Below are positions 52,839 to 64,000 of a DNA stretch of 64,000 nt, in pieces. Every line of letters begins with the position of its first letter. Positions within the stretch are counted from its first letter, which is position 1. A program made the position numbers and the translations under genes. Origin of the DNA: Candidatus Eiseniibacteriota bacterium. GTDB lineage: Bacteria; Eisenbacteria; RBG-16-71-46; JABDJR01. The stretch lies in contig CAWANH010000028.1 of NCBI GenBank assembly GCA_963783375.1, forward strand, positions 576,001 through 640,000, read 5' to 3'. Below the pieces are notes generated by a model. That model was not told the origin of the DNA. It saw only the letters and a program-made list of their open reading frames with translations, and did no database searches.

Positions 52839-53204
52839 GTGCGCACGTTTCTCCATGCCGCCAAGGCCCTGGGCGACGCGAGCCGGGTCCGGATCCTCCT
52901 GGCCCTCCGCGAGCGCGAACTCTGCGTCTGCCAGATCACCGAGCTCCTGGGCCATGCCCCATCCACCGTGTCCCGCCACATGGCGGTGCTCAAGCACGCC
53001 CGCTTCGTGGAGAGCCGGAAGGACGGCCGCTGGATCTACTACCGCCGGACCGGCGGCGACGCGCCGGAGACGGTGCGCGACGCCCTGGCCTGGCTCGACG
53101 CGTCCTTCGACGCCGACCCGAGTCGAAGCGAGGACGAAACGCACCTGGAACGCATCCTGAGCGTCACCCCGGAGGAACTGTGTCGGACCAACGCGGCCGG
53201 TTGA
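52839..53204 (+). CDS. arsR: ArsR-family metalloregulator
   Basis: 'ALGDASRVRIL...ELCVCQI...STVSRHM...GRWIYY'. Confidence 0.9.
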   Translation: MRTFLHAAKALGDASRVRILLALRERELCVCQITELLGHAPSTVSRHMAVLKHARFVESRKDGRWIYYRRTGGDAPETVRDALAWLDASFDADPSRSEDETHLERILSVTPEELCRTNAAG

Positions 53205-53740
53205 ACGACGACCGCCCCGCCGGGGACGCGCGACCCGGCCGGCGGGACACACCGGGCGACGACCGCCCGTCCGGGGATAGGCGGCCGGACCCGGCCGGGA
53301 AGCTCCGCATCCTGTTCCTCTGCACGGGAAATTCCTGCCGGAGCCAGATGGCCGAGGGATTCGCCCGCGCCTTGAAGGGGGATCGGGTGGAGGCGCACTC
53401 CGCCGGAGTGGAGGTCCACGGCTTGAACCCGCTCGCGGTGCGGGCCATGGCCGAGGCCGGGGTGGACATCTCCGCCCAGCGCTCCAAGAACGTCTTCGAG
53501 GTGCTGGAGATCCCGTTCGCGCTGGTGGTCACGGTCTGCGACAGCGCCCGGGAACGCTGTCCGATCTTCCCGCGATGGACCCGCGCCCTCCACGTGAGCT
53601 TCGACGATCCTCCGTTCCTGGCCCGTGGGGCCGCGAGCGAGGAGGAAGCCATGGAGCACTATCGCCGGGTGCGGGACGAGATACGCGCCTTCGTCGAGGG
53701 CATGGACGCCGAGCTGGACGCCCTGGAGACGCGCCCGTGA
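53201..53740 (+). CDS. arsC: Arsenate reductase (LMW-PTP/thioredoxin type)
   Basis: '[16 protein letters not shown]', 'VTVCD..RERCP', 'FDDP'; probable TTG start overlapping the arsR stop. Confidence 0.88.
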
Positions 53741-54825
53741 CCCCCGGAGTGACCCGCCGCCTGAAGGTCCTGGACCGGTACCTCACCCTCTGGATCTTCC
53801 TGGCCATGGCCGTTGGGGTGGCCCTGGGGCGGCTGGTCCCGGGGACCGCGGCCTTCATCCAGCGATTCCAAACCGGAACCACCAACCTCCCGATCGCGGT
53901 CGGGCTCATTCTCATGATGTACCCGCCCCTGGCCAAGGTCCGCTACGAGGAGCTGGGTGAGGTGTTCCGGAACCGCCGGATCCTCGGGCTCTCGCTCTTC
54001 GAGAACTGGGTGATCGGCCCGGCGCTCATGTTCGCCCTGGCGGTGACGTTCCTTCGCGGCTACCCCGAGTACATGACCGGCCTGATCCTGATCGGCCTCG
54101 CCCGTTGCATCGCCATGGTGATCGTCTGGAACGAGCTGGCGCGGGGGGACACCGAATACGCGGCGGGCCTGGTGGCTCTGAACAGCGTGTTCCAGGTGCT
54201 CTTCTACAGCGTCTACGCCTGGGTGTTCATCACCTGGCTGCCTCCGCTCTTCGGACTTCGGGGAAGCGTGGTGCCGGTGTCCATGGGCCAGATCGCCGAG
54301 AGCGTGTTCATCTACCTGGGGATCCCGTTCCTGGCCGGTCTCCTGACCCGGCTCACCCTGGTGCGCCTTCGCGGGAAGGTCTGGTACCACGAGCGGTTCA
54401 TCCCGCGCCTGAGCCCGGTGACCCTGATCGCGCTCCTGTTCACGATCCTGGTGATGTTCGGGCTCAAGGGGGACCGCATCCTGAGCATCCCCCTCGACGC
54501 GGCGCGGATCGCCCTGCCGCTCCTGATCTACTTCGTGGTCATGTTCCTGGTGAGCTTCTGGCTCGGCCGGGAGGCGGGGGCGGACTACCCCAAGACCGCC
54601 GCGTTGTCGTTCACCGCGGCCAGCAACAACTTCGAGCTGGCCATCGCGGTGGCGGTGGCGGTGTTCGGGATCGACTCCGGCGTGGCCTTCGCCGCGGTCA
54701 TCGGGCCCCTGGTCGAGGTGCCGGTCCTGATCGGGCTGGTCAACGTGGCGCTCTGGTTCCGGCGACGCTACTTCGAGGCGCGGGGGGAGTCGGTGATCGG
54801 CGCCGCCTCGCCCCAGAGAAAGTAG
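53737..54825 (+). CDS. acr3: Acr3-family arsenite efflux transporter
   Basis: '[13 protein letters not shown]', 'MMYPPLAKV', 'ARCIAMV', '[11 protein letters not shown]', 'GPLVEVP'. Confidence 0.95.
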
Positions 54826-55551: not shown

Positions 55552-56463
55552 CTACCAGAAGGCCACCGTGACCCCCACCGCCACCACCACGGCGGCGGCG
55601 AAGATCAGGAGATAGCCCAGCCACAGGCCCACCAGCTTTCCCAGGGTCTTGAGAACGGATTGAGCGTAGACCCGGCGCATGGCTCTGAACAGATAGGCAA
55701 CCACCATCAGGAAGGCCAGGCCCTGGAGAGCACCGCCGACGCGTGGCCCGATCATCCTCCCGGCCAACAGGGCCACGGCCAGAAGGAGGAACGCGAAGGT
55801 GTGAAGGTGGAGGGCGAAGACGAGGTGCTCGATGTAGAGGCGTCGCGTTCGGATGTGGAGCAGCCAGAGCATCAGCGCGAAGAGAGGCATGAGCAGGAAC
55901 ATGAGCCGCGGGAGGGCGCTTCGGATCTCCCGGTTCAGCCGATCCTCGTCGGCGGAGGCCTTGGCGAGGGTCCTGGCCAGGAATCCGGGCAGTCCGGCCA
56001 GAGTGTCCGGAGCGGCTCCGGTCGTCGACTCCGAGCCGGCGGTGAGGGTGTCCAGGGCTGCGGTCGTCGTCGAATCCGGGCGGATGCCGATGATGACCGG
56101 CGCCGAAAGGTCGCTCGCTCCGACCTGAATGAGGCGGCTCTGGTTGAGGGCCAGGGCGGCGAAGAACACCACGCTCACGATCAGGTAGAACCGGAAGGGC
56201 GGGAGGTAGCGGACCCGGCGGCCGGCCATGTATTCCTGAGTCAGAAAGCCCGGCCGGAGGAGCAGCGGCCGGATGCTCCGGAAGAACCTGGAGTCGAAGG
56301 AGAGGACCTCGCCGAACGCTTCCGAGACCAGCTTTCGGAAGGGGATGCGTCGATCCTCGTCCTCCTGGCCGCACTCGTGGCAGAAACGGCCGGCCAGGGC
56401 CGCGCAGCAGTTCAGGCAGTTGCGGCCACCGGCGTCCTTCCTGGATTCTGGGCTGTCGCTCAT
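55552..56463 (-). CDS. DUF3667-like membrane protein with N-terminal zinc ribbon
   Basis: 'CLNC...FCHECGQ', 'LLLRPGFLT.EY..GRRVRYLPPFRFY', 'EHLVFALH'. Confidence 0.8.
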   Translation of the reverse strand: MSDSPESRKDAGGRNCLNCCAALAGRFCHECGQEDEDRRIPFRKLVSEAFGEVLSFDSRFFRSIRPLLLRPGFLTQEYMAGRRVRYLPPFRFYLIVSVVFFAALALNQSRLIQVGASDLSAPVIIGIRPDSTTTAALDTLTAGSESTTGAAPDTLAGLPGFLARTLAKASADEDRLNREIRSALPRLMFLLMPLFALMLWLLHIRTRRLYIEHLVFALHLHTFAFLLLAVALLAGRMIGPRVGGALQGLAFLMVVAYLFRAMRRVYAQSVLKTLGKLVGLWLGYLLIFAAAVVVAVGVTVAFW

Positions 56464-56801
56464 CGAGTCCCGCTCCGGTTCGCGCCGCGCCTCCGGCGCG
56501 GGGATCGAGGCGCCGCCGGCCGCCTCGGTGTGGTGGCGGGCCCGGCCGGGCCGGGGCCCCTCCTCCACGATGGATCGGCGTGCGCCGGCTCTCCTCCGGT
56601 CGCGGGGCGGAGTGTACCCGGGTACGTGGCGGTTCCGGAAGCCCGGGGGCTCTTCGCTTGTTCCAAGGGATTGCGTCTGATAATCTGACTATTGGTAGGA
56701 TTTGTGTCACGGATGCTCCGCTGTATCCGCACAAAGTCCGTTCCCCTACCGACAGACTTTTCCGGTATCAATGGCCGACCCCGGAAGTGCAGGGTGCGTG
56801 C

Positions 56802-57527
56802 ATGGCAGCCAGGCGCGAACATGTGGAGCCGCCAACCCCGATCCCCGGGACCGCGTCGGTCAGGTGGACGGATGCATTGGACGGCGTCGCTCCGGATCCC
56901 GTCGGCGCTCTCGCCGAATCGATCGGTTCGGGCCCCACGGTCTCGGTCATCTTCACCCCCTCACGATGCGAGAAGCGGGTCGCCCGTGCCTGCGCGCGCC
57001 TCGAGATTCCGGTTTATCTTCCCCTTCGCGAAGGCCGCCGGGCGAAGTCGGGGGACCGCTTCAAGGTGCCGCTCTTTCCCGGCTACGTGTTCGCGTCGTT
57101 GAGCGCGGAGAGCCGACGAGCGCTGGTCGGCCACACGAGGATCGCCCGGGTCATTCCGGTAGCCCGGCCGGATGGACTTCTGGAGGAGCTTCGCCAGATC
57201 CACCGGGCGCTTGCGGCGCGGCCAGATCTCGAGTCCGCCCCGGCCCTGTCCCGGGGGCGACGAGTCCGGGTGATGGCGGGTCCGATGACCGGGGTGGTGG
57301 GCCTGATCGCCGACCGGCGAATCCGCCGAAGCCGACTTCGCCTGGTTTTGAACGTCACCATGCTCGGTCGCGGCGCCGAGGTGAACATCGACGCCGCCGA
57401 CGTCGAACTGGTTTCCGCGCCCACGAACTCTCCGGTGGCCGGTCCCGGCCGGCGGTGCCGGGGTGGGTTTCGCGGTGGACCGTGGCTCGACGATGATGGA
57501 GGAAAGCGCCCGACAGAACCGATCTGA
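56802..57527 (+). CDS. Specialised NusG paralogue (RfaH/UpxY/LoaP-like transcription antiterminator)
   Basis: NGN domain 'EKRVA...YLPL...VPLFPGYVF' and KOW 'GRRVRVMAGPMTGVVG...LVLNVTMLGR'; not in a secE-rplK context; start uncertain. Confidence 0.82.
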   Translation: MAARREHVEPPTPIPGTASVRWTDALDGVAPDPVGALAESIGSGPTVSVIFTPSRCEKRVARACARLEIPVYLPLREGRRAKSGDRFKVPLFPGYVFASLSAESRRALVGHTRIARVIPVARPDGLLEELRQIHRALAARPDLESAPALSRGRRVRVMAGPMTGVVGLIADRRIRRSRLRLVLNVTMLGRGAEVNIDAADVELVSAPTNSPVAGPGRRCRGGFRGGPWLDDDGGKRPTEPI

Positions 57528-57685
57528 GAGGGACCGCGGGGATTCGGAGTCGAACCCGCGACGGCTCAGGCGTCTGTCGTGGCCTTCAGGGCTTCCGGTA
57601 GCCTGCCATTCGGCCGGTGAAGAGGACGAAGTCCGCCCTTCTCCCGGAGTGCGATAGGACATTCCCCGTCCGTGAGTGGGATGTC

Positions 57686-58765
57686 ATGCGGGTGGAATCG
57701 ATCGGATTTCATGCGGGGCCGGCCGACGCGGGGTCGGTCGGTGCGCGCTCGCCCGAGGCCGGGGCGGTTCGGGACGGCGACGGCGCGCTCGGACCCTCCC
57801 GTCCCCCCAAGCTGTTGGACCGGGTCCGCACGGTTATCCGAGCCCGGCACTACAGCGCCAGCACCGAGAAGGCCTATGTGGGGTGGGTGCGGCGGTATGT
57901 GCTGTTCCACGGCAAGCGACATCCGGAGACGCTCGGCGAGGCGGAGATCACCGAGTTCCTGTCGGCGCTCGCGACCCGGCGGCGGGTCAGCGCTTCAACT
58001 CAGAACCAGGCCCTGAGCGCGCTGCTCTTTCTCTACCGGGACGTTCTCGGGCGTGAGATGACGTGGATGGACGGCATCGTCCGCGCCAAGCGCCCGATCC
58101 GGCTCCCGGTGGTGCTGAGCCGGGACGAGGTTCGGGCGATCCTGGGGCAGATGAACGGAACGCCGTGGCTGATGGCGTCCCTCTTGTATGGAGCGGGCCT
58201 GAGGCTCATGGAGTGCTGCCGTCTCCGGGTGAAGGACGTGGACTTCGGGAGGGGGGAACTCCTCGTCCGCGACGGGAAGGGGCGAAAGGATCGGGTGACG
58301 TTGCTCCCGAGGCGGCCGCGCGAGCCGTTGTCGACCCACCTCGACCGGGTCCGGTCGTTGCATCGGAGGGATTTGAAGGAGGGAGCGGGGAGCGTCGCGC
58401 TTCCCGACGCCCTGGCGGTCAAGTACCCCCGGGCGGCCTGGGAATGGGCCTGGCAGTGGGCCTGGCAGTGGGTCTTCCCGGCCACCCGGTCCTACGTGGA
58501 GCGGGGGACCGGCGAGCGACGCCGGCACCACCTGCACGAGTCGGTTCTCCAGCGGGCGATCAAGGAGGCTGTCCGCCGGGCGGGGGTCCCGAAACCGGCA
58601 ACCTCGCACACGCTCCGTCACTCGTTCGCCACCCACTTGCTGGAGGCGGGCTACGATATCCGGACCATCCAGGAACTCCTGGGCCACAGCGACGTCAGCA
58701 CGACCATGATCTACACCCACGTCCTGAATCGCGGCGGGCGGGGCGTGCGGAGCCCGCTGGATTGA
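57686..58765 (+). CDS. intI: Integron integrase (tyrosine recombinase)
   Basis: 'RHYS..TEKAY..W', '[14 protein letters not shown]', '[11 protein letters not shown]', 'DGKGRKDR', integron-specific insertion 'LPDAL..KYP..WQWVFP...RRHH', '[12 protein letters not shown]', 'LLGH', 'TTMIYTHV'; start uncertain. Confidence 0.95.
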
Positions 58766-59000
58766 GTTCGCGTGCGGCGACGGCGGGGAAGTCTGCCGTG
58801 CAGGTGCGGTGTGCGAGGCTATTTGGGCTATCTTGCGGTCGGGTACTTTGCTATGTGTATCTGGCTATCCATCGCGCAGGCGCTGCATATCCACCGACGG
58901 CGGGGGTTTCCAGTAGAGGCACCGCCTTGATTATGGGGAGGTTCCCCCCGGCCGCATACCTGACTACTCGACCGCCCCGCGTCATGTTCCGCGGGATATC

Positions 59001-59024
59001 GAAGTCGGATACTTCACGTTAGGT
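59001..59024 (+). mobile_element. attI: attI site (core GTTAGGT at 59018-59024)
   Basis: GTTAGGTGAC is the exact complement of GTCACCTAAC at the first attC; no attC hairpin upstream; small palindrome GAAGT-CGGAT-ACTTC at 59001-59015. Confidence 0.75.
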
Positions 59025-59043
59025 GACAGAAGTGAGGCTGACG

Positions 59044-59517
59044 ATGAACGGTCTCGGTATCCACCGCCTTTTTGGGGCGCTTTTCTTGGGGATGTGCCTC
59101 CATGGCTGCGGCAATGATGCCCCGACAACTCCAGTTGCCGGCAAAGTGAGCGTCATGGTAAGTGCATCGCAGTACTCAAAGACGCATCTCGACTACGTAT
59201 CGGCGATCCTCAGCAACGCGAGCGCGGATACGGTCTACGTATTCGAATGTACCGCCGTGGCCACCCTGGAGCGGGAAGAACAGGATGGCACGTGGGTTGA
59301 CTTGGGTCCGTGGTACTTCATGTGCGACGGCCCGGCTTGGCCACTTCCAATAGAGTCGACTGGGTTCCGTCCACTGCCGACCATTCCGAGTGAACATGTG
59401 GCCGGGCTCGCGACAGGACGCTACAGGATCCGTGTTGCCGTCTACGCAGACTCCAACATGGGCACGCTTCTCCCCGAGGAACAGCGGGTCTCGCGAGCGT
59501 TCAGTGTGACTGACTGA
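59044..59517 (+). CDS. Cassette 1: hypothetical lipoprotein (Ig-like)
   Basis: Lipobox 'MCLHG-C'; sole ORF between attI and attC1. Confidence 0.7.
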   Translation: MNGLGIHRLFGALFLGMCLHGCGNDAPTTPVAGKVSVMVSASQYSKTHLDYVSAILSNASADTVYVFECTAVATLEREEQDGTWVDLGPWYFMCDGPAWPLPIESTGFRPLPTIPSEHVAGLATGRYRIRVAVYADSNMGTLLPEEQRVSRAFSVTD

Positions 59518-59534
59518 ATCGTCTGCGGCGGGTC

Positions 59535-59634
59535 ACCTAACCTCCCGCTGCAGCCGTCGCCCGCGCGGGGGGGGAGGGAGATGGCGGGAAGGGCAGGAAC
59601 CGCGCCGGCGCGGCTGAGCGGGAAGGCGTTATGC
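59535..59634 (+). mobile_element. attC: attC site 1 (100 bp)
   Basis: R'' ACCTAAC, L'' GCTGCAGC, L' GCTGAGC, R' GTTATGC. Confidence 0.88.
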
Positions 59635-59660
59635 TTATCGACTGAAGGGGTGAACCTGAG

Positions 59661-60239
59661 TTGACGCCAACACTCATTGTCGTTGCCGGCCCCAATGGCT
59701 CTGGTAAGACAACGTTTGCGACGACCTATCAGGCGGAGACTGGCGGTATTCTGCTATCCACAGACTTCATTGCAGATGACCTTCGCCGGGCCGGAACCCC
59801 GGTCAGCGAGTTCGATGCTGGGCGCAGGTTCTTTGCCAAACTCAACCGCCTCCTCGAGGACGGCCAAAATCTCATCGTGGAGTCCACTGCAGCGGGGCGG
59901 GGGCTCACGAAGCACATCGATCGCGCCAGGGCTCTGGGCTACCAGACAAGTATCGTGTTCATCTTTCTCGAGTCAGCTGACATGTGCGTTGCCAGGGTGG
60001 AAGAGCGCGTCCGGAAGGGCGGGCACAGGGTCGCCGAAGAGGACATCCGGCGCCGTTACCCACGTAGTATCATGCACTTCTGGGATCTTCATCGCTTGGC
60101 CTTTCAGCGGTGGTATCTGTTCTATAATTCAGGAAGCCAGTTTGCCGCTGTGGCGGCGGGCACGGGTCCGGAAACGTCGATCTTCGACGACGCCCTTTTC
60201 GCGCAATTTCAGAGCATCGTTGAAGGGGTAAGCGAATGA
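59661..60239 (+). CDS. Cassette 2: zeta-toxin-like P-loop kinase/ATPase
   Basis: 'VVAGPNGSGKTT', 'IVEST', 'RVEERVRKGGH', 'IRRRY.RS'. Confidence 0.8.
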   Translation: MTPTLIVVAGPNGSGKTTFATTYQAETGGILLSTDFIADDLRRAGTPVSEFDAGRRFFAKLNRLLEDGQNLIVESTAAGRGLTKHIDRARALGYQTSIVFIFLESADMCVARVEERVRKGGHRVAEEDIRRRYPRSIMHFWDLHRLAFQRWYLFYNSGSQFAAVAAGTGPETSIFDDALFAQFQSIVEGVSE

Positions 60240-60439
60240 GCGAGCCACAACCCAAACCCAACGGGGATCTCCAGGCGGAACTCCGTACCTTTCAACGCAT
60301 CGGAAGCCGTGCCGTCCTCAAGGCCCAGGAGGAGAGTCGGCGGCTCCGCGTCCCCAATGTCTACTCCCACCGGGGGCGCGTATACTTTGAGCTCCCTGAC
60401 GGCGAGCTTTCCCTGTCTGATCCTCTCGCAGAGAAGTAG
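60236..60439 (+). CDS. Cassette 2: small protein coupled to the zeta-like gene (putative antitoxin)
   Basis: ATGA overlap; 67 aa 'RAVLKAQEESRRLRVPNVYS..GRVYFE'. Confidence 0.65.
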   Translation: MSEPQPKPNGDLQAELRTFQRIGSRAVLKAQEESRRLRVPNVYSHRGRVYFELPDGELSLSDPLAEK

Positions 60440-60445
60440 GTAGAA

Positions 60446-60576
60446 ACATAACTGGCGGTTGAACCTGCCATGCCAACCTGGCACGGCCTTGGCTGTACGC
60501 CAGCTTCGCCTTGCCCAGAAAGGCCCCCAGCCAAGGCCGTGCCAGCTCGGCTTGCAGGTTAACCTGGACGTTAGGC
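60446..60576 (+). mobile_element. attC: attC site 2 (131 bp)
   Basis: R'' ACATAAC, L'' GTTGAACC, long stem CTGGCACGGCCTTGGCT/AGCCAAGGCCGTGCCAG, L' GGTTAAC, R' GTTAGGC. Confidence 0.9.
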
Positions 60577-60600
60577 CAGAAGGGATGCAAGACGTAAGAG

Positions 60601-60816
60601 ATGGGTAAGGACAAGGGCTTCACCCCACAAGCTGCGCGGCATTGGGGAGCGCTTGATCCTCGTCTCCAGACTCGATTGCTGAACAACGTGTGGTGCGTGC
60701 GATGCGGCCCCTCAACGTCGATCGTTGGCTTCACCGGACGAATCACGCATGGCGACTTGCTCTTGGAGGGTTCTTGTGGGCGATGCGGAGGCCCCGTGGC
60801 GCGAGTCATAGAATGA
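60601..60816 (+). CDS. Cassette 3: small zinc-ribbon protein
   Basis: 'VWCVRCG...GSCGRCGG' with two CxxC motifs. Confidence 0.65.
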   Translation: MGKDKGFTPQAARHWGALDPRLQTRLLNNVWCVRCGPSTSIVGFTGRITHGDLLLEGSCGRCGGPVARVIE

Positions 60817-60978
60817 AGGTGAGGCTCCCCCTCCTTGGCCATTCTCCCGTCTTCTTGCTTTTCGGCAGCCAATTCTTCGCATCGCTTGACGAAGTCATTG
60901 CAACGCATTGAAATACATAGGGTTGCCTGCTGGACTCTGCTGGAATCGAGAGTTCAGGGAATGAGGTAAACTGACGGC

Positions 60979-61218
60979 ATGTCGCCAACCGTGCTCAGGT
61001 CGGGCCCGTACCGTTTCTTCTTCTTCAGCAATGAGGCGGGTGAAGCGGTTCATATTCACGTTCAGCGGGAGAGAATGCTCGCGAAGTTTTGGCTTGATCC
61101 GGTTCAAGTGGCGCGCTCTACCGGCTTTTCGCCACGCGAGCTGAGACGAATCGAGAGCATCATAGCCAAAAGCAGAACGCTGCTCTTGGAGGCATGGAAT
61201 GAGTACTTCGCCAATTGA
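60979..61218 (+). CDS. Cassette 3: DUF4160-family protein (putative toxin)
   Basis: 'PTVLRSGPYRFFFFSNE...HIHV...AKFWLDP...WNEYF'. Confidence 0.85.
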   Translation: MSPTVLRSGPYRFFFFSNEAGEAVHIHVQRERMLAKFWLDPVQVARSTGFSPRELRRIESIIAKSRTLLLEAWNEYFAN

Positions 61219-61459
61219 AGTCCGGCCTTTGGCCCGCACCGCCGAAGTGACCGATGACGAACTGATTGTTGGGCTCGCCGACGGCAGGGTTATCAAAGTG
61301 CCTCTTGTTTGGTTTCCGCGACTCTTGCAAGCCAGTCCCGCCGCACGCCGAAAGTGGGAACTGCTCGGAGATGGCGAAGGCATCCATTGGCCGGATGCGG
61401 ATGAAGATCTCAGTGTTGAAGGTCTTCTGGCGGGTAATTCGGCCAGGGGTGTGGCCTAA
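61199..61459 (+). CDS. Cassette 3: DUF2442-family protein (putative antitoxin)
   Basis: 'LADGR...VPLVWFPRL..AS...GIHWPDADEDLSVEGLL'; stop codon lies in the attC3 R'' box. Confidence 0.85.
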   Translation: MSTSPIEVRPLARTAEVTDDELIVGLADGRVIKVPLVWFPRLLQASPAARRKWELLGDGEGIHWPDADEDLSVEGLLAGNSARGVA

Positions 61460-61513
61460 CAACAGCATGCAGCGGACGGCGCCTCGCGCCGCCGCAGATA
61501 CTGGACGTTAGCC
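61454..61513 (+). mobile_element. attC: attC site 3 (60 bp)
   Basis: R'' GCCTAAC (TGGCCTAAC complements GTTAGGCCA at attC2), L'' CATGCAGC, R' GTTAGCC. Confidence 0.85.
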
Positions 61514-61535
61514 AGACTGAAGGCAGGTTCCGCAG

Positions 61536-62207
61536 ATGGGGCTATACGAAGTGACGACAAGGGCCGCGGGTGTGGGCGCCGGACGTGCTCCCCTCACCTT
61601 GGCCCTGATAGGCGGGTGCCTGCTTGCATCCCTGCCCCTGCTCCTGATGCCTTCCCTTCGCAACACGCTTGGCAGCGGCGCGTCGCGACCTGTCGTCGGC
61701 CTCGTGACTTCGCCCTTTGTTCACGGCTTTTCCACGGCATCGCTCGTCCCTCATCTGGCTGGCAACCTCGCGCTGCTTTGGTACGCAGGGTCGCTCGTGG
61801 AAAGAGGTCTAGGGACGGCTCGCTTCGCCGTTCTGACGCTCTGTGCGTTGGGTGCCTACATGGCTATCCAGACGTTCGGCGCTCTCGAAGTAAACGGGGC
61901 ATCAGTATTCGTCTGGGCCTACGCACCCCCTCTGGCCCTGCTGCACCGATACTGTCTGCGAACCTCCTCGCGAGCCTCCGGTGGCGATGACATGACTGCC
62001 ACTCCGATAGTGCTGGTCATCATGTGGGTCGTCGTGCCGTTGCTGATGACTGCCGTTCCCTACGCCTTCGGCTGGTCCGGAGGTCTGGTCCGCGCGTTCG
62101 TGGTGGCCAACACCTTCCACATCAGCGCCACGGTCGTCGGGATCGGCGCTGCCTGGGCATGGCGGCAACAGCTGACCTCCGCAGCGGCCGAGATGGGTCA
62201 TGGGTAA
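61536..62207 (+). CDS. Cassette 4: rhomboid-like intramembrane protease
   Basis: 'VTSPFVH...HLAGNLALLWYAGSLVERGLG', 'NGAS', TM6 His 'TFHISA'. Confidence 0.72.
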   Translation: MGLYEVTTRAAGVGAGRAPLTLALIGGCLLASLPLLLMPSLRNTLGSGASRPVVGLVTSPFVHGFSTASLVPHLAGNLALLWYAGSLVERGLGTARFAVLTLCALGAYMAIQTFGALEVNGASVFVWAYAPPLALLHRYCLRTSSRASGGDDMTATPIVLVIMWVVVPLLMTAVPYAFGWSGGLVRAFVVANTFHISATVVGIGAAWAWRQQLTSAAAEMGHG

Positions 62208-62262
62208 CGGGACCGGTGCCTATGGTGACAGGGCAAGGAACCAACAAGCGAAATGGGCCACT

Positions 62263-62655
62263 ATGACAGATGGGAAACGCAGTGCTGAGTTAGCTGTGGG
62301 CTGGATCGAAGCGTGGATAAGGATGGACCTGGAGTGGTTGAGGGAACGGCTGGCTCCCGATTTCGTTCACACCAACCCGTTCGGCTGCCTCGAGGGATGT
62401 GACCATTACCTAGAAACCGTGGGGCCCATGGCCCGAAAGAGCGTGCAAGAGCTCAAGATCAGAGAGGTGCTCGCGGACGGGAATCAAGCAGCGGTCTGGT
62501 TCGAAAACCGGACACCCAAGGGAGTGATTCCATCCTGCGACTGGGTTCGCGTCGAAAGCGGCATGATCAAGGAAATCCAGTCGTTCTACGACAGCACGAA
62601 GGTGCGTGAAGTCCTGTCACCTGACGAGCAGGAGGATCTCGGTGATTCCTATTAG
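62263..62655 (+). CDS. Cassette 4: SnoaL/NTF2-like protein
   Basis: 'WIEAWIRMDLEWLRERLAPDFVH..PFG', 'LADGNQAAVW', 'IKEIQSFYD'. Confidence 0.8.
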   Translation: MTDGKRSAELAVGWIEAWIRMDLEWLRERLAPDFVHTNPFGCLEGCDHYLETVGPMARKSVQELKIREVLADGNQAAVWFENRTPKGVIPSCDWVRVESGMIKEIQSFYDSTKVREVLSPDEQEDLGDSY

Positions 62656-62720
62656 CACGACGGCCAGCGGTACCCTTCGGAATAGTGATCTGCACGCGGT
62701 CAAGGCAGCGCATCTTGGCT

Positions 62721-62784
62721 GGCTAACAACCGGTTGCAGCGGACGGTTCGCCGCGCGGCCCGCCGCTGAACCGGAGCGTTAGCC
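62721..62784 (+). mobile_element. attC: attC site 4 (64 bp)
   Basis: R'' GGCTAAC (CTGGCTAAC complements GTTAGCCAG at attC3), L'' GTTGCAGC, L' GCTGAAC, R' GTTAGCC. Confidence 0.9.
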
Positions 62785-62935
62785 CCACAACGGCCGCAAT
62801 GGGGCAGCGACCCAACGAACACGAAGATCATTGGTGCTGGCGGCTTGCATCCACCGGCCGCAGCGCTGCTCGATCCAGCGAGATGCCTGTCGTCTTCTAC
62901 TAGTAACACACTCGTGCAGGCAGTAGGATGCGCAG

Positions 62936-64000
62936 ATGAACGTTGTTCTGGCTCTCCTCGCAACTGGACTCGTGACCGCTGCACTGGCTCAGGCACCTTC
63001 GGATTCAATAGGCGAGTTTCTCGCGACCGAAATGCCGAGGTCGGGTGCGCCGGGGCTCGCTTATGCGGTGGTCGAAGGTGATGAGGTCCGGACCGGAAGC
63101 GCCGGGCCCGTGACGGCCGATACGCCATTCCTCATTGGCTCCATCTCCAAGAGCTTCACCGCCATGGCTGTGATGAGGCTGTCAGAAGCCGGAAAGGTCG
63201 AGCTTCAAGCGCCAGTCTCGCGCTATCTCGCTGTCTTCGAGGACCGCCCCTCCGGCGCCATCACCCTCCGGCAGCTGCTCGGCCACACCAGCGGCTATTC
63301 AACCTGGCAAGGCAACGACACGCACACCGATCGCACGAGCAGCCGGGATGAACTTCAGCGCCAGGTCGCGCGAATCGCTCGATGGACTCCGGCGCACGCG
63401 CCCGACACGCGTTGGCAGTACTCCAATGCGAACTACCTGATCCTTGGCGCTGTGATCGAGGCAGTGAGCGGCGAGGACTTCGCGAGCTACATTGAAAAGG
63501 AGATTCTCGAGCCGATCGGGATGAAGGCGAGCTTCGTCTCCGACGGGGAAGACCATGACGCGATGGCGGTCGGCCATCAGCCCTGGTTCGCCTCGAAGCG
63601 ACCGCTCGAGGACAATCGCACGAATCGCGCCAACGCGCCTGCGGGCGGCATCGTCGCTACTGCCTCGGACATGGCCCTTTATCTGGCGGTCATGATGAAC
63701 GGACGGGACGATGTCATCAGCGCAGCGAGTAAGGCCGCCATGCTGCGCCCGGCCAGCACGGCTTCTCCTTACTACGGCTTCGGCTGGTCCATCGACTCCC
63801 ACAATGGCACGTTCTCTCACTCGGGCCTCACACCCGGCGTCGAGACGCTGGCGGTCCTGATGCCGGAGAATCGCAAGGGCGTCGTCATTCTCGTCAATTC
63901 GAACAGCGGATTCGGATTTGGGGAAAACGCACGGCTCTTCGATGGAGTCAGCGCGCGAGCCCTGGGCCTGGATGACCCCGGAAGCGGGAGTAGTTGGGGT
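62936..64000 (+). CDS. Cassette 5: exported serine hydrolase of the beta-lactamase/PBP (class C-like) family, 3' truncated by window
   Basis: Translated manually (not in the ORF track): signal peptide MNVVLALLATG..., SxxK 'GSISKSFT', 'LLGHTSG', 'WQYSNANY', 'FSHSG'. Confidence 0.85.
   Translation, partial: MNVVLALLATGLVTAALAQAPSDSIGEFLATEMPRSGAPGLAYAVVEGDEVRTGSAGPVTADTPFLIGSISKSFTAMAVMRLSEAGKVELQAPVSRYLAVFEDRPSGAITLRQLLGHTSGYSTWQGNDTHTDRTSSRDELQRQVARIARWTPAHAPDTRWQYSNANYLILGAVIEAVSGEDFASYIEKEILEPIGMKASFVSDGEDHDAMAVGHQPWFASKRPLEDNRTNRANAPAGGIVATASDMALYLAVMMNGRDDVISAASKAAMLRPASTASPYYGFGWSIDSHNGTFSHSGLTPGVETLAVLMPENRKGVVILVNSNSGFGFGENARLFDGVSARALGLDDPGSGSSWG

Follow-up and report, generated by a model that had tools for sequence, protein, structure and literature searches.

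In a 64,000-nucleotide stretch of a Candidatus Eiseniibacteriota genome (contig CAWANH010000028.1, positions 576,001 to 640,000; hereafter the window), a gene for a specialised paralogue of the elongation factor NusG directly precedes an integron, and between the two lies a short site resembling the ops signal of RfaH, which the preliminary description of this DNA did not contain. Gene, site and cassette array recur in one order and on one strand in related genomes, the stem of the site shows a covarying base pair, and substitution ratios point to purifying selection on the gene. We consider it probable that the paralogue is a locus-specific anti-polarity factor of the RfaH/UpxY kind that was recruited to cassette arrays. 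We also lean, by a small measure, towards a fuller account, in which a dedicated paralogue clade and its ops-like site passed from polysaccharide operons to arrays, serve at least two recombinase platforms (one of them insertion-lacking, with 160-bp sites) and lift position-dependent silencing.

All features of the window are listed in Table 1. Paralogue gene, intI, attI and five cassettes lie on the + strand, with 158 bp between the paralogue stop codon and the intI start; this layout, given in the preliminary description, was confirmed by protein profiles, a structure model and an attC covariance model. The integrase scores 462 bits against TIGR02249 (cut-off 265) over the whole profile, carries the IntI-specific insertion, and is the sole above-cut-off match in its genome. 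The covariance model was built from 19 sites, among them 7 of the 10 sites of the window array. Inside the window it places four attC sites (59535, 60446, 61454 and 62721); a further six, with E ≤ 0.005, follow outside it as far as window position 68963. Of the ten matches with E ≤ 0.01 in the whole genome, nine fall in this array. With an insertion-bearing IntI, an attI beside the integrase gene and an array of attC-bounded cassettes, the locus is an integron. As had been stated before, the interval 57527-57686 showed no terminator-like site, and no polysaccharide or polyketide synthase genes were found among the neighbouring open reading frames (ORFs) of the window, as read from their translations. 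From the paralogue to position 89126, 36 called genes follow one another on the + strand over 32 kb (the ninth-longest of 705 same-strand runs according to a simple gene caller), and the GC content falls from ~0.69 to ~0.60 at attI.

The paralogue is a protein of 241 amino acids that matches the Pfam NusG profile (PF02357, 33.3 bits; cut-off 22.2), while Pfam KOW gave no score on it. An AlphaFold model of residues 46-205 (mean predicted local distance difference test score 95, predicted template-modelling score 0.87) comprises an NGN domain and an all-beta C-terminal domain, and its best Foldseek matches are NusG, Spt5 and RfaH structures, with full-length matches to NusG. As modelled, the protein fits the NusG/Spt5 family in both the NGN domain and the C-terminal KOW beta-barrel; the beta C-domain comes from a single model of a type that cannot exclude RfaH-type fold switching. 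It is the second NusG copy of its genome, the housekeeping NusG being encoded on contig C22, and it falls below the cut-off of every named subfamily: 27.5 bits against 135.7 for housekeeping NusG (TIGR00922), 30.1 against 144.5 for RfaH (TIGR01955), 30.1 against 125 for LoaP (NF033641), and 46.4 against 100 for UpxY (NF033644), its best NCBIfam match. Articles are cited here and below by PubMed Central number. The I-F-G loop of NusG contacts Rho (PMC7593976). At the corresponding KOW loop the paralogue reads TMLGR, compared with SIFGR in the housekeeping NusG; the F of this loop is kept in none of nine copies of the paralogue clade described below and is retained by the genome's housekeeping NusG, and the genome also encodes Rho. 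Ratios of nonsynonymous to synonymous substitution rates (dN/dS) of 0.29-0.46 across six pairs of copies show that the gene is under purifying selection. For an assignment to the functional class of specialised NusG paralogues (NusG-SP), two features were found: a second copy of NusG adjoining a long locus on its own strand, and a conserved site in cis that could fold into a non-template hairpin.

We found this site by aligning the DNA 3' of paralogue stop codons. Its core is present in all ten clade copies for which DNA is available, 87-224 bp downstream of the gene, and consists of GA-N-RGG, a stem G(A/G)C, a loop G(A/G)A and then G(T/C)C or a shortened form; no such site lies upstream of the window paralogue gene. 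A search with the middle stem bases left free detected the core 3' of the gene at 25 of 153 loci, and in 23 of these the two bases pair (13 A-T, 9 G-C, 1 C-G). None of 20,000 shuffles reached 23 (mean 11), and three control regions per locus gave nine core matches, of which three were paired. We read this pattern as base-pair covariation in the stem. The G-C variants read GCGNAGC and match the YGCGNAGCR hairpin of Bacteroides opsX (PMC11685472). A 21-nt signal pattern occurs at seven places in the 206 genomes sampled from the phylum, four of them directly behind paralogue copies; the window site differs from it by one base and is not matched. A motif matrix built without the window copy narrowly ranks the window site first in its genome. 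The spacing of the signal, with G at -10, a pyrimidine at -1 and G at +1, fits the elemental pause consensus. Two further candidates were set aside: an Rfam scan of 12 loci returned one chance match and no RNA family, and among seven other sites inspected in the window's own genome no convincing target in trans emerged, most lying inside or antisense to genes and none heading a polysaccharide operon.

Close relatives of the paralogue occur in five of the 206 genomes, in nine copies. The G039 copy, which heads a polysaccharide operon, is not part of the clade; the other eight, together with the metagenome loci L115 and L117, lie in one 21-row clade of a NusG-paralogue tree computed without the long row L200. 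The clade is small, with 17 representatives (~17 clusters at 50% identity) scoring above 207 bits before a gap. The preliminary description had proposed to look for the same adjacency in related genomes, and it was found: at four loci from two families (the window genome G000, G048, G036a and G037a), the paralogue precedes a co-oriented IntI and attC array. The attI is common to G000, G036a, G037a and G049, and its pattern gave no match in G048. In G036b, attI and attC sites begin ~300 bp after the signal, and the interval holds no integrase gene. In G037b and L115, the paralogue is followed by a tyrosine recombinase on the opposite strand and then by a same-strand array of ~160-bp attC-like hairpins; in G036d it precedes the same type of recombinase at a contig end, and in G036c it precedes cassette-like genes. 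Seven of the ten clade contexts thus contain an array, two are suggestive and one (L117) is negative, and a recombinase gene comes next in seven of the ten. Beyond the clade, IntI-like matches were found at 4 of 160 fetched wider-family paralogue loci, all four of them clade members, and at none of 23 loci (1.5-kb flanks) of a sister clade in a second phylum. The suggestion that the factor is dedicated to integrons fits the small clade, L117 apart, and does not fit the wider family, whose members include heads of polysaccharide operons.

Across these contexts, the order and strand of gene, signal and array are constant, while the type, strand and even presence of the integrase vary, as do the upstream neighbours of the paralogue. 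Because the loci with an opposite-strand recombinase keep the gene on the array strand, the gene follows the strand of the array and not that of the integrase. This geometry is our strongest argument that the cassettes are the target. It also bears on the orientation of intI, which the preliminary description had made part of the device. Among loci lacking the paralogue, intI is co-oriented with the array in 20 of 20 informative cases (16 of 36 loci had no attC match in the fetched DNA), which makes the inverted intI a trait of the phylum; since two paralogue loci moreover carry an opposite-strand recombinase, we rejected a role for the inverted intI in the mechanism. TIGR02249 matched in 66 of the 206 genomes, in 63 above the cut-off. 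The proposed check of co-inheritance was made with an IntI tree of 40 rows, which omits three recombinases lacking the IntI insertion: the integrases of the module carriers (G000, G048, G036a and G037a) form one clade with that of G049 (97/91), a pattern that would fit one gain and one loss of the module. The module is optional for the integrons of the phylum.

What would such a factor do at a cassette array? In E. coli, foreign genes are silenced by NusG together with Rho, an effect that RfaH opposes once it has loaded at ops (PMC7593976). The preliminary description pictured the paralogue as carrying transcription through attC hairpins, and this part needs amending: attC sites are reported to impede translation and not to terminate transcription (PMC8876359), and the array holds about as many terminator-like sites as expected by chance (13 found, 14.4 expected; 7 found, 8.8 expected). 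The idea of attC hairpins as intrinsic terminators was accordingly set aside. Given these reported properties of attC sites and the loss of the Rho loop, the paralogue likely acts by loading at the site and relieving polarity over the array. A promoter upstream of the paralogue gene would start a single transcript; the polymerase would pause at ~57634, where the non-template strand may fold GAC-GAA-GTC as ops does; and the paralogue would bind at the paused site, displacing the housekeeping NusG. Without the IFG Rho-contact loop, it would then weaken Rho polarity across the cassettes, which are lower in GC and poorly translated, and possibly also help ribosome loading, so that cassettes beyond the first few would be expressed.

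A number of observations weigh against this account. A sigma-70 consensus promoter was not found in 56400-59100, by a scan that is strict for an organism of 69% GC, and internal promoters can express large arrays (PMC2945992). The module is present in only 4 of the 66 TIGR02249-positive genomes, the G049 integrase is sister to that of the window yet lacks paralogue gene and signal, and arrays without the module are equally long in the stretches fetched (8-16 attC sites in G049, G047 and G015). Support for the paralogue clade is 98 by bootstrap but only 71 by the Shimodaira-Hasegawa-like approximate likelihood ratio test (SH-aLRT), and ten further clade proteins lack genomic context. The sample amounts to four genomes and two metagenome contigs that are related and non-independent; two of the genomes are long contigs whose apparent frameshifts or stops may be errors. 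Within it, the G036d gene is split in two frames and no array is seen there, G036c has only one strong attC, and L117 carries the core signal but no integron within 1.2 kb. The shuffle test overstates the covariation because related loci share pairs, and a second genomic site scores nearly as high as the window site on the motif matrix (26.0 and 26.3), yet lies antisense within a gene.

Some of these points would suit a history in which an integron inserted once behind a leftover paralogue and signal unit, the pair then being inherited, duplicated and moved without effect on the cassettes. The IntI cases all belong to a single IntI clade, in which G049 lost the gene; G036a, b and c are closely related, the gene is missing from most of the phylum's integrons, and L117 heads something else. 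We nevertheless regard this history as unlikely: the paralogue is always on the array strand although two recombinase types occur in opposite orientations, signal and attI are retained where intI is absent, upstream neighbours vary among loci, the gene is under purifying selection and the signal covaries. It is more doubtful still that the signal acts as an attenuator or checkpoint, with a protein that is pro-pausing or mainly trans-acting elsewhere, such that the unit limits or gates the cassettes. Some UpxY proteins are indeed pro-pausing (PMC11685472), the arrays carry toxin-antitoxin-like genes and a candidate RNA hairpin precedes the core; however, the site lacks a T-run terminator, most of the other genomic sites described above lie inside or antisense to genes and none heads a polysaccharide operon, and the same signal leads polysaccharide operons, which are described as activated by NusG paralogues. 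Control of the integrase itself, by boosting a co-oriented intI or by antisense transcription through a convergent recombinase and so setting the shuffling rate, is compatible with anti-polarity at the array, and as the explanation of the module we give it a low probability. The window intI starts ~50 bp after the signal and a recombinase gene is the usual next neighbour, but G036b has signal and attI without an integrase, G048 keeps gene and signal despite an in-frame TAG in intI (L021:8456-8458), both looking intact, and the same module would have to act in opposite ways depending on orientation.

The anti-polarity reading has a close parallel in UpxY and opsX of Bacteroides capsule operons, where the paralogue is likewise encoded in the operon that it would control and a GCGNAGC-type non-template hairpin is joined by an upstream RNA hairpin (PMC11685472). 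There, opsX lies in the leader upstream of upxY, the first gene of a polysaccharide operon, whereas the window site lies downstream of a gene that precedes a cassette array. [quoted passage not shown] RfaH has an autoinhibited alpha-to-beta fold switch; the window paralogue is modelled with a beta C-domain. LoaP, TaA and ActX also adjoin long same-strand target clusters (PMC7819879), which are antibiotic or pilus operons and not integrons. Chromosomal integrons with an inverted integrase have IntI, attI and an attC array on the intI strand, as here (PMC4889954, PMC9668308), without the upstream elongation-factor gene and signal of the window. In agreement with the preliminary description, which knew of no antitermination-controlled integron, our literature search found no article joining integrons with a NusG paralogue or RfaH; it covered articles exclusive of supplements, and the neighbourhood tables of PMC7593976 could bear on the point. 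The system is best read as a known kind of regulator acting on a target class for which we found no description in the literature searched. Integron theory holds that the first cassettes are expressed and distal ones stored. If our reading is true, a dedicated elongation factor would add a new control layer through which a long stretch of captured genes is expressed at once, and it would join NusG-paralogue anti-termination and integron expression, two fields that we did not find linked in that literature. With one gene and a 40-bp site, the module is compact and could be turned into a tool for the expression of entire cassette libraries, although its reach is so far as narrow as the clade itself.

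Table 1. Coordinates of features in the window and of the locus groups discussed in the text
Feature	Position	Strand	Evidence
Specialised NusG paralogue, NGN and beta C-terminal domain (modelled), extended N- and C-tails	56802..57527	+	Pfam, AlphaFold, Foldseek, dN/dS
Candidate RNA hairpin, opening at conserved (C/G)GTAG, sequence variable among copies; possible pause hairpin	57595..57617	+	alignments
Ops-like core: GA-N-RGG, mini-hairpin GAC-GAA-GTC (57625-57633), C|G; predicted pause/loading site	57619..57635	+	alignments, pairing, Rfam scan
Integron integrase IntI, same orientation as array	57686..58765	+	TIGR02249; tree
attI, core GTTAGGT at 59019	58995..59025	+	conserved in 4 intI loci and integrase-less G036b
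Cassette 1 ORF, no family found	59047..59517	+	ORF list, profile scans
attC 1 (training member of model)	59535..59634	+	covariance model
Cassette 2: AAA_33/zeta-like P-loop protein and overlapping 67-aa partner	59661..60439	+	ORF list, Pfam
attC 2	60446..60576	+	covariance model
Cassette 3 region: 71-aa ORF, DUF4160/DUF2442 pair (toxin-antitoxin-like; weak DhiT match)	60601..61459	+	profile scans
attC 3	61454..61513	+	covariance model
Cassette 4 region: rhomboid-family and SnoaL-like ORFs	61536..62655	+	Pfam
attC 4	62721..62784	+	covariance model
Cassette 5: beta-lactamase-fold serine hydrolase, below all class C cut-offs shown	62936..64000, extends past window	+	profile scans
attC 5	64357-64424		covariance model
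Insertion-lacking recombinase/long-repeat loci	L028:4234-20000 and L250:1-7900 (G037); L115:2071-6460; L026:4791-6221		
Ops-like core 3' of paralogue, 5' of polysaccharide operon	L047, L048, L058, L064, L065, L068, L071, L119, L127, L174		

The second recombinase platform consists of a tyrosine recombinase with an IntI-type N-terminal domain and without the IntI-specific insertion, encoded divergently beside the ~160-bp attC-like hairpin array. The G037b and L115 enzymes are 35-38% identical to IntI and fall below the TIGR02249 cut-off; the authors of IntegronFinder do not count recombinases without the IntI domain near attC sites as IntI (PMC4889954). The short attC model misses the 160-bp repeats, which a repeat search detected: their end motif occurs 21 times in G037b and three times in L115, and the arrays hold toxin-antitoxin-like genes and secreted-looking proteins. 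No long-repeat array was found beside relatives of the recombinase in the second phylum (6 of 168 genomes; 5 fetched). Recombinase and array may together form an integron-like platform of another kind; alternatively, a canonical IntI might act in trans on the long-repeat arrays, which would leave the strand argument unaffected.

Distant paralogues from Planctomycetota and from other metagenome loci have the same core signal downstream of the gene. At all six distant loci checked, the next genes are for a sugar dehydrogenase, flippase, glycosyltransferase or exosortase. These Planctomycetota paralogues share the gene-signal-operon order with the window, but sit on a separate tree branch and have biosynthetic genes downstream. 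We found no description of their gene-signal-polysaccharide operon arrangement in the literature searched, and the window module looks borrowed from a unit of this type. In the sister clade (L274-L296; 23 of 168 genomes of the second phylum), synteny is conserved and the signal is absent, the paralogue often lying 3' of a nucleotidyltransferase-like gene and 5' of one for a very large secreted-looking protein, as read from translations. An exact 21-nt signal, possibly a chance match, occurs at L301 (G060:C277:2950-2970) in a genome where no paralogue was found.

No shared promoter motif was found upstream of the paralogue gene among ten copies. As to mobile carriers, a single-protein search found none in viral contigs, and an alignment-based viral search returned only distant relatives (best segments 24-41% identical); there was also one chance match of the signal motif in a portal gene and one distant plasmid match. 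A defence-system scan of 16 cassette proteins gave one methyltransferase-type and one weak match and was not informative. Away from the array, a solo attC-like match lies at G000:C3:72459-72590. The G036 arrays (L023:16536-17160, L025:9574-11226) contain tandem near-identical cassettes at ~310-bp spacing without a clear ORF and are interrupted by insertion-sequence and reverse-transcriptase fragments. In the window, intI has a 12-bp tandem duplication (58440-58470) that adds four residues to the integron-specific region, either a real variant or an assembly error. Upstream lies an arsenic-resistance-like operon (52839-54825) with ArsR-like regulator, arsenate-reductase-like and Acr3-like genes, as read from translations. 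Past the last detectable attC, ~19 kb of cassette-like genes continue on the same strand (G000:C28 about 646000-665126, L001-L002), which suggests a decayed older array.

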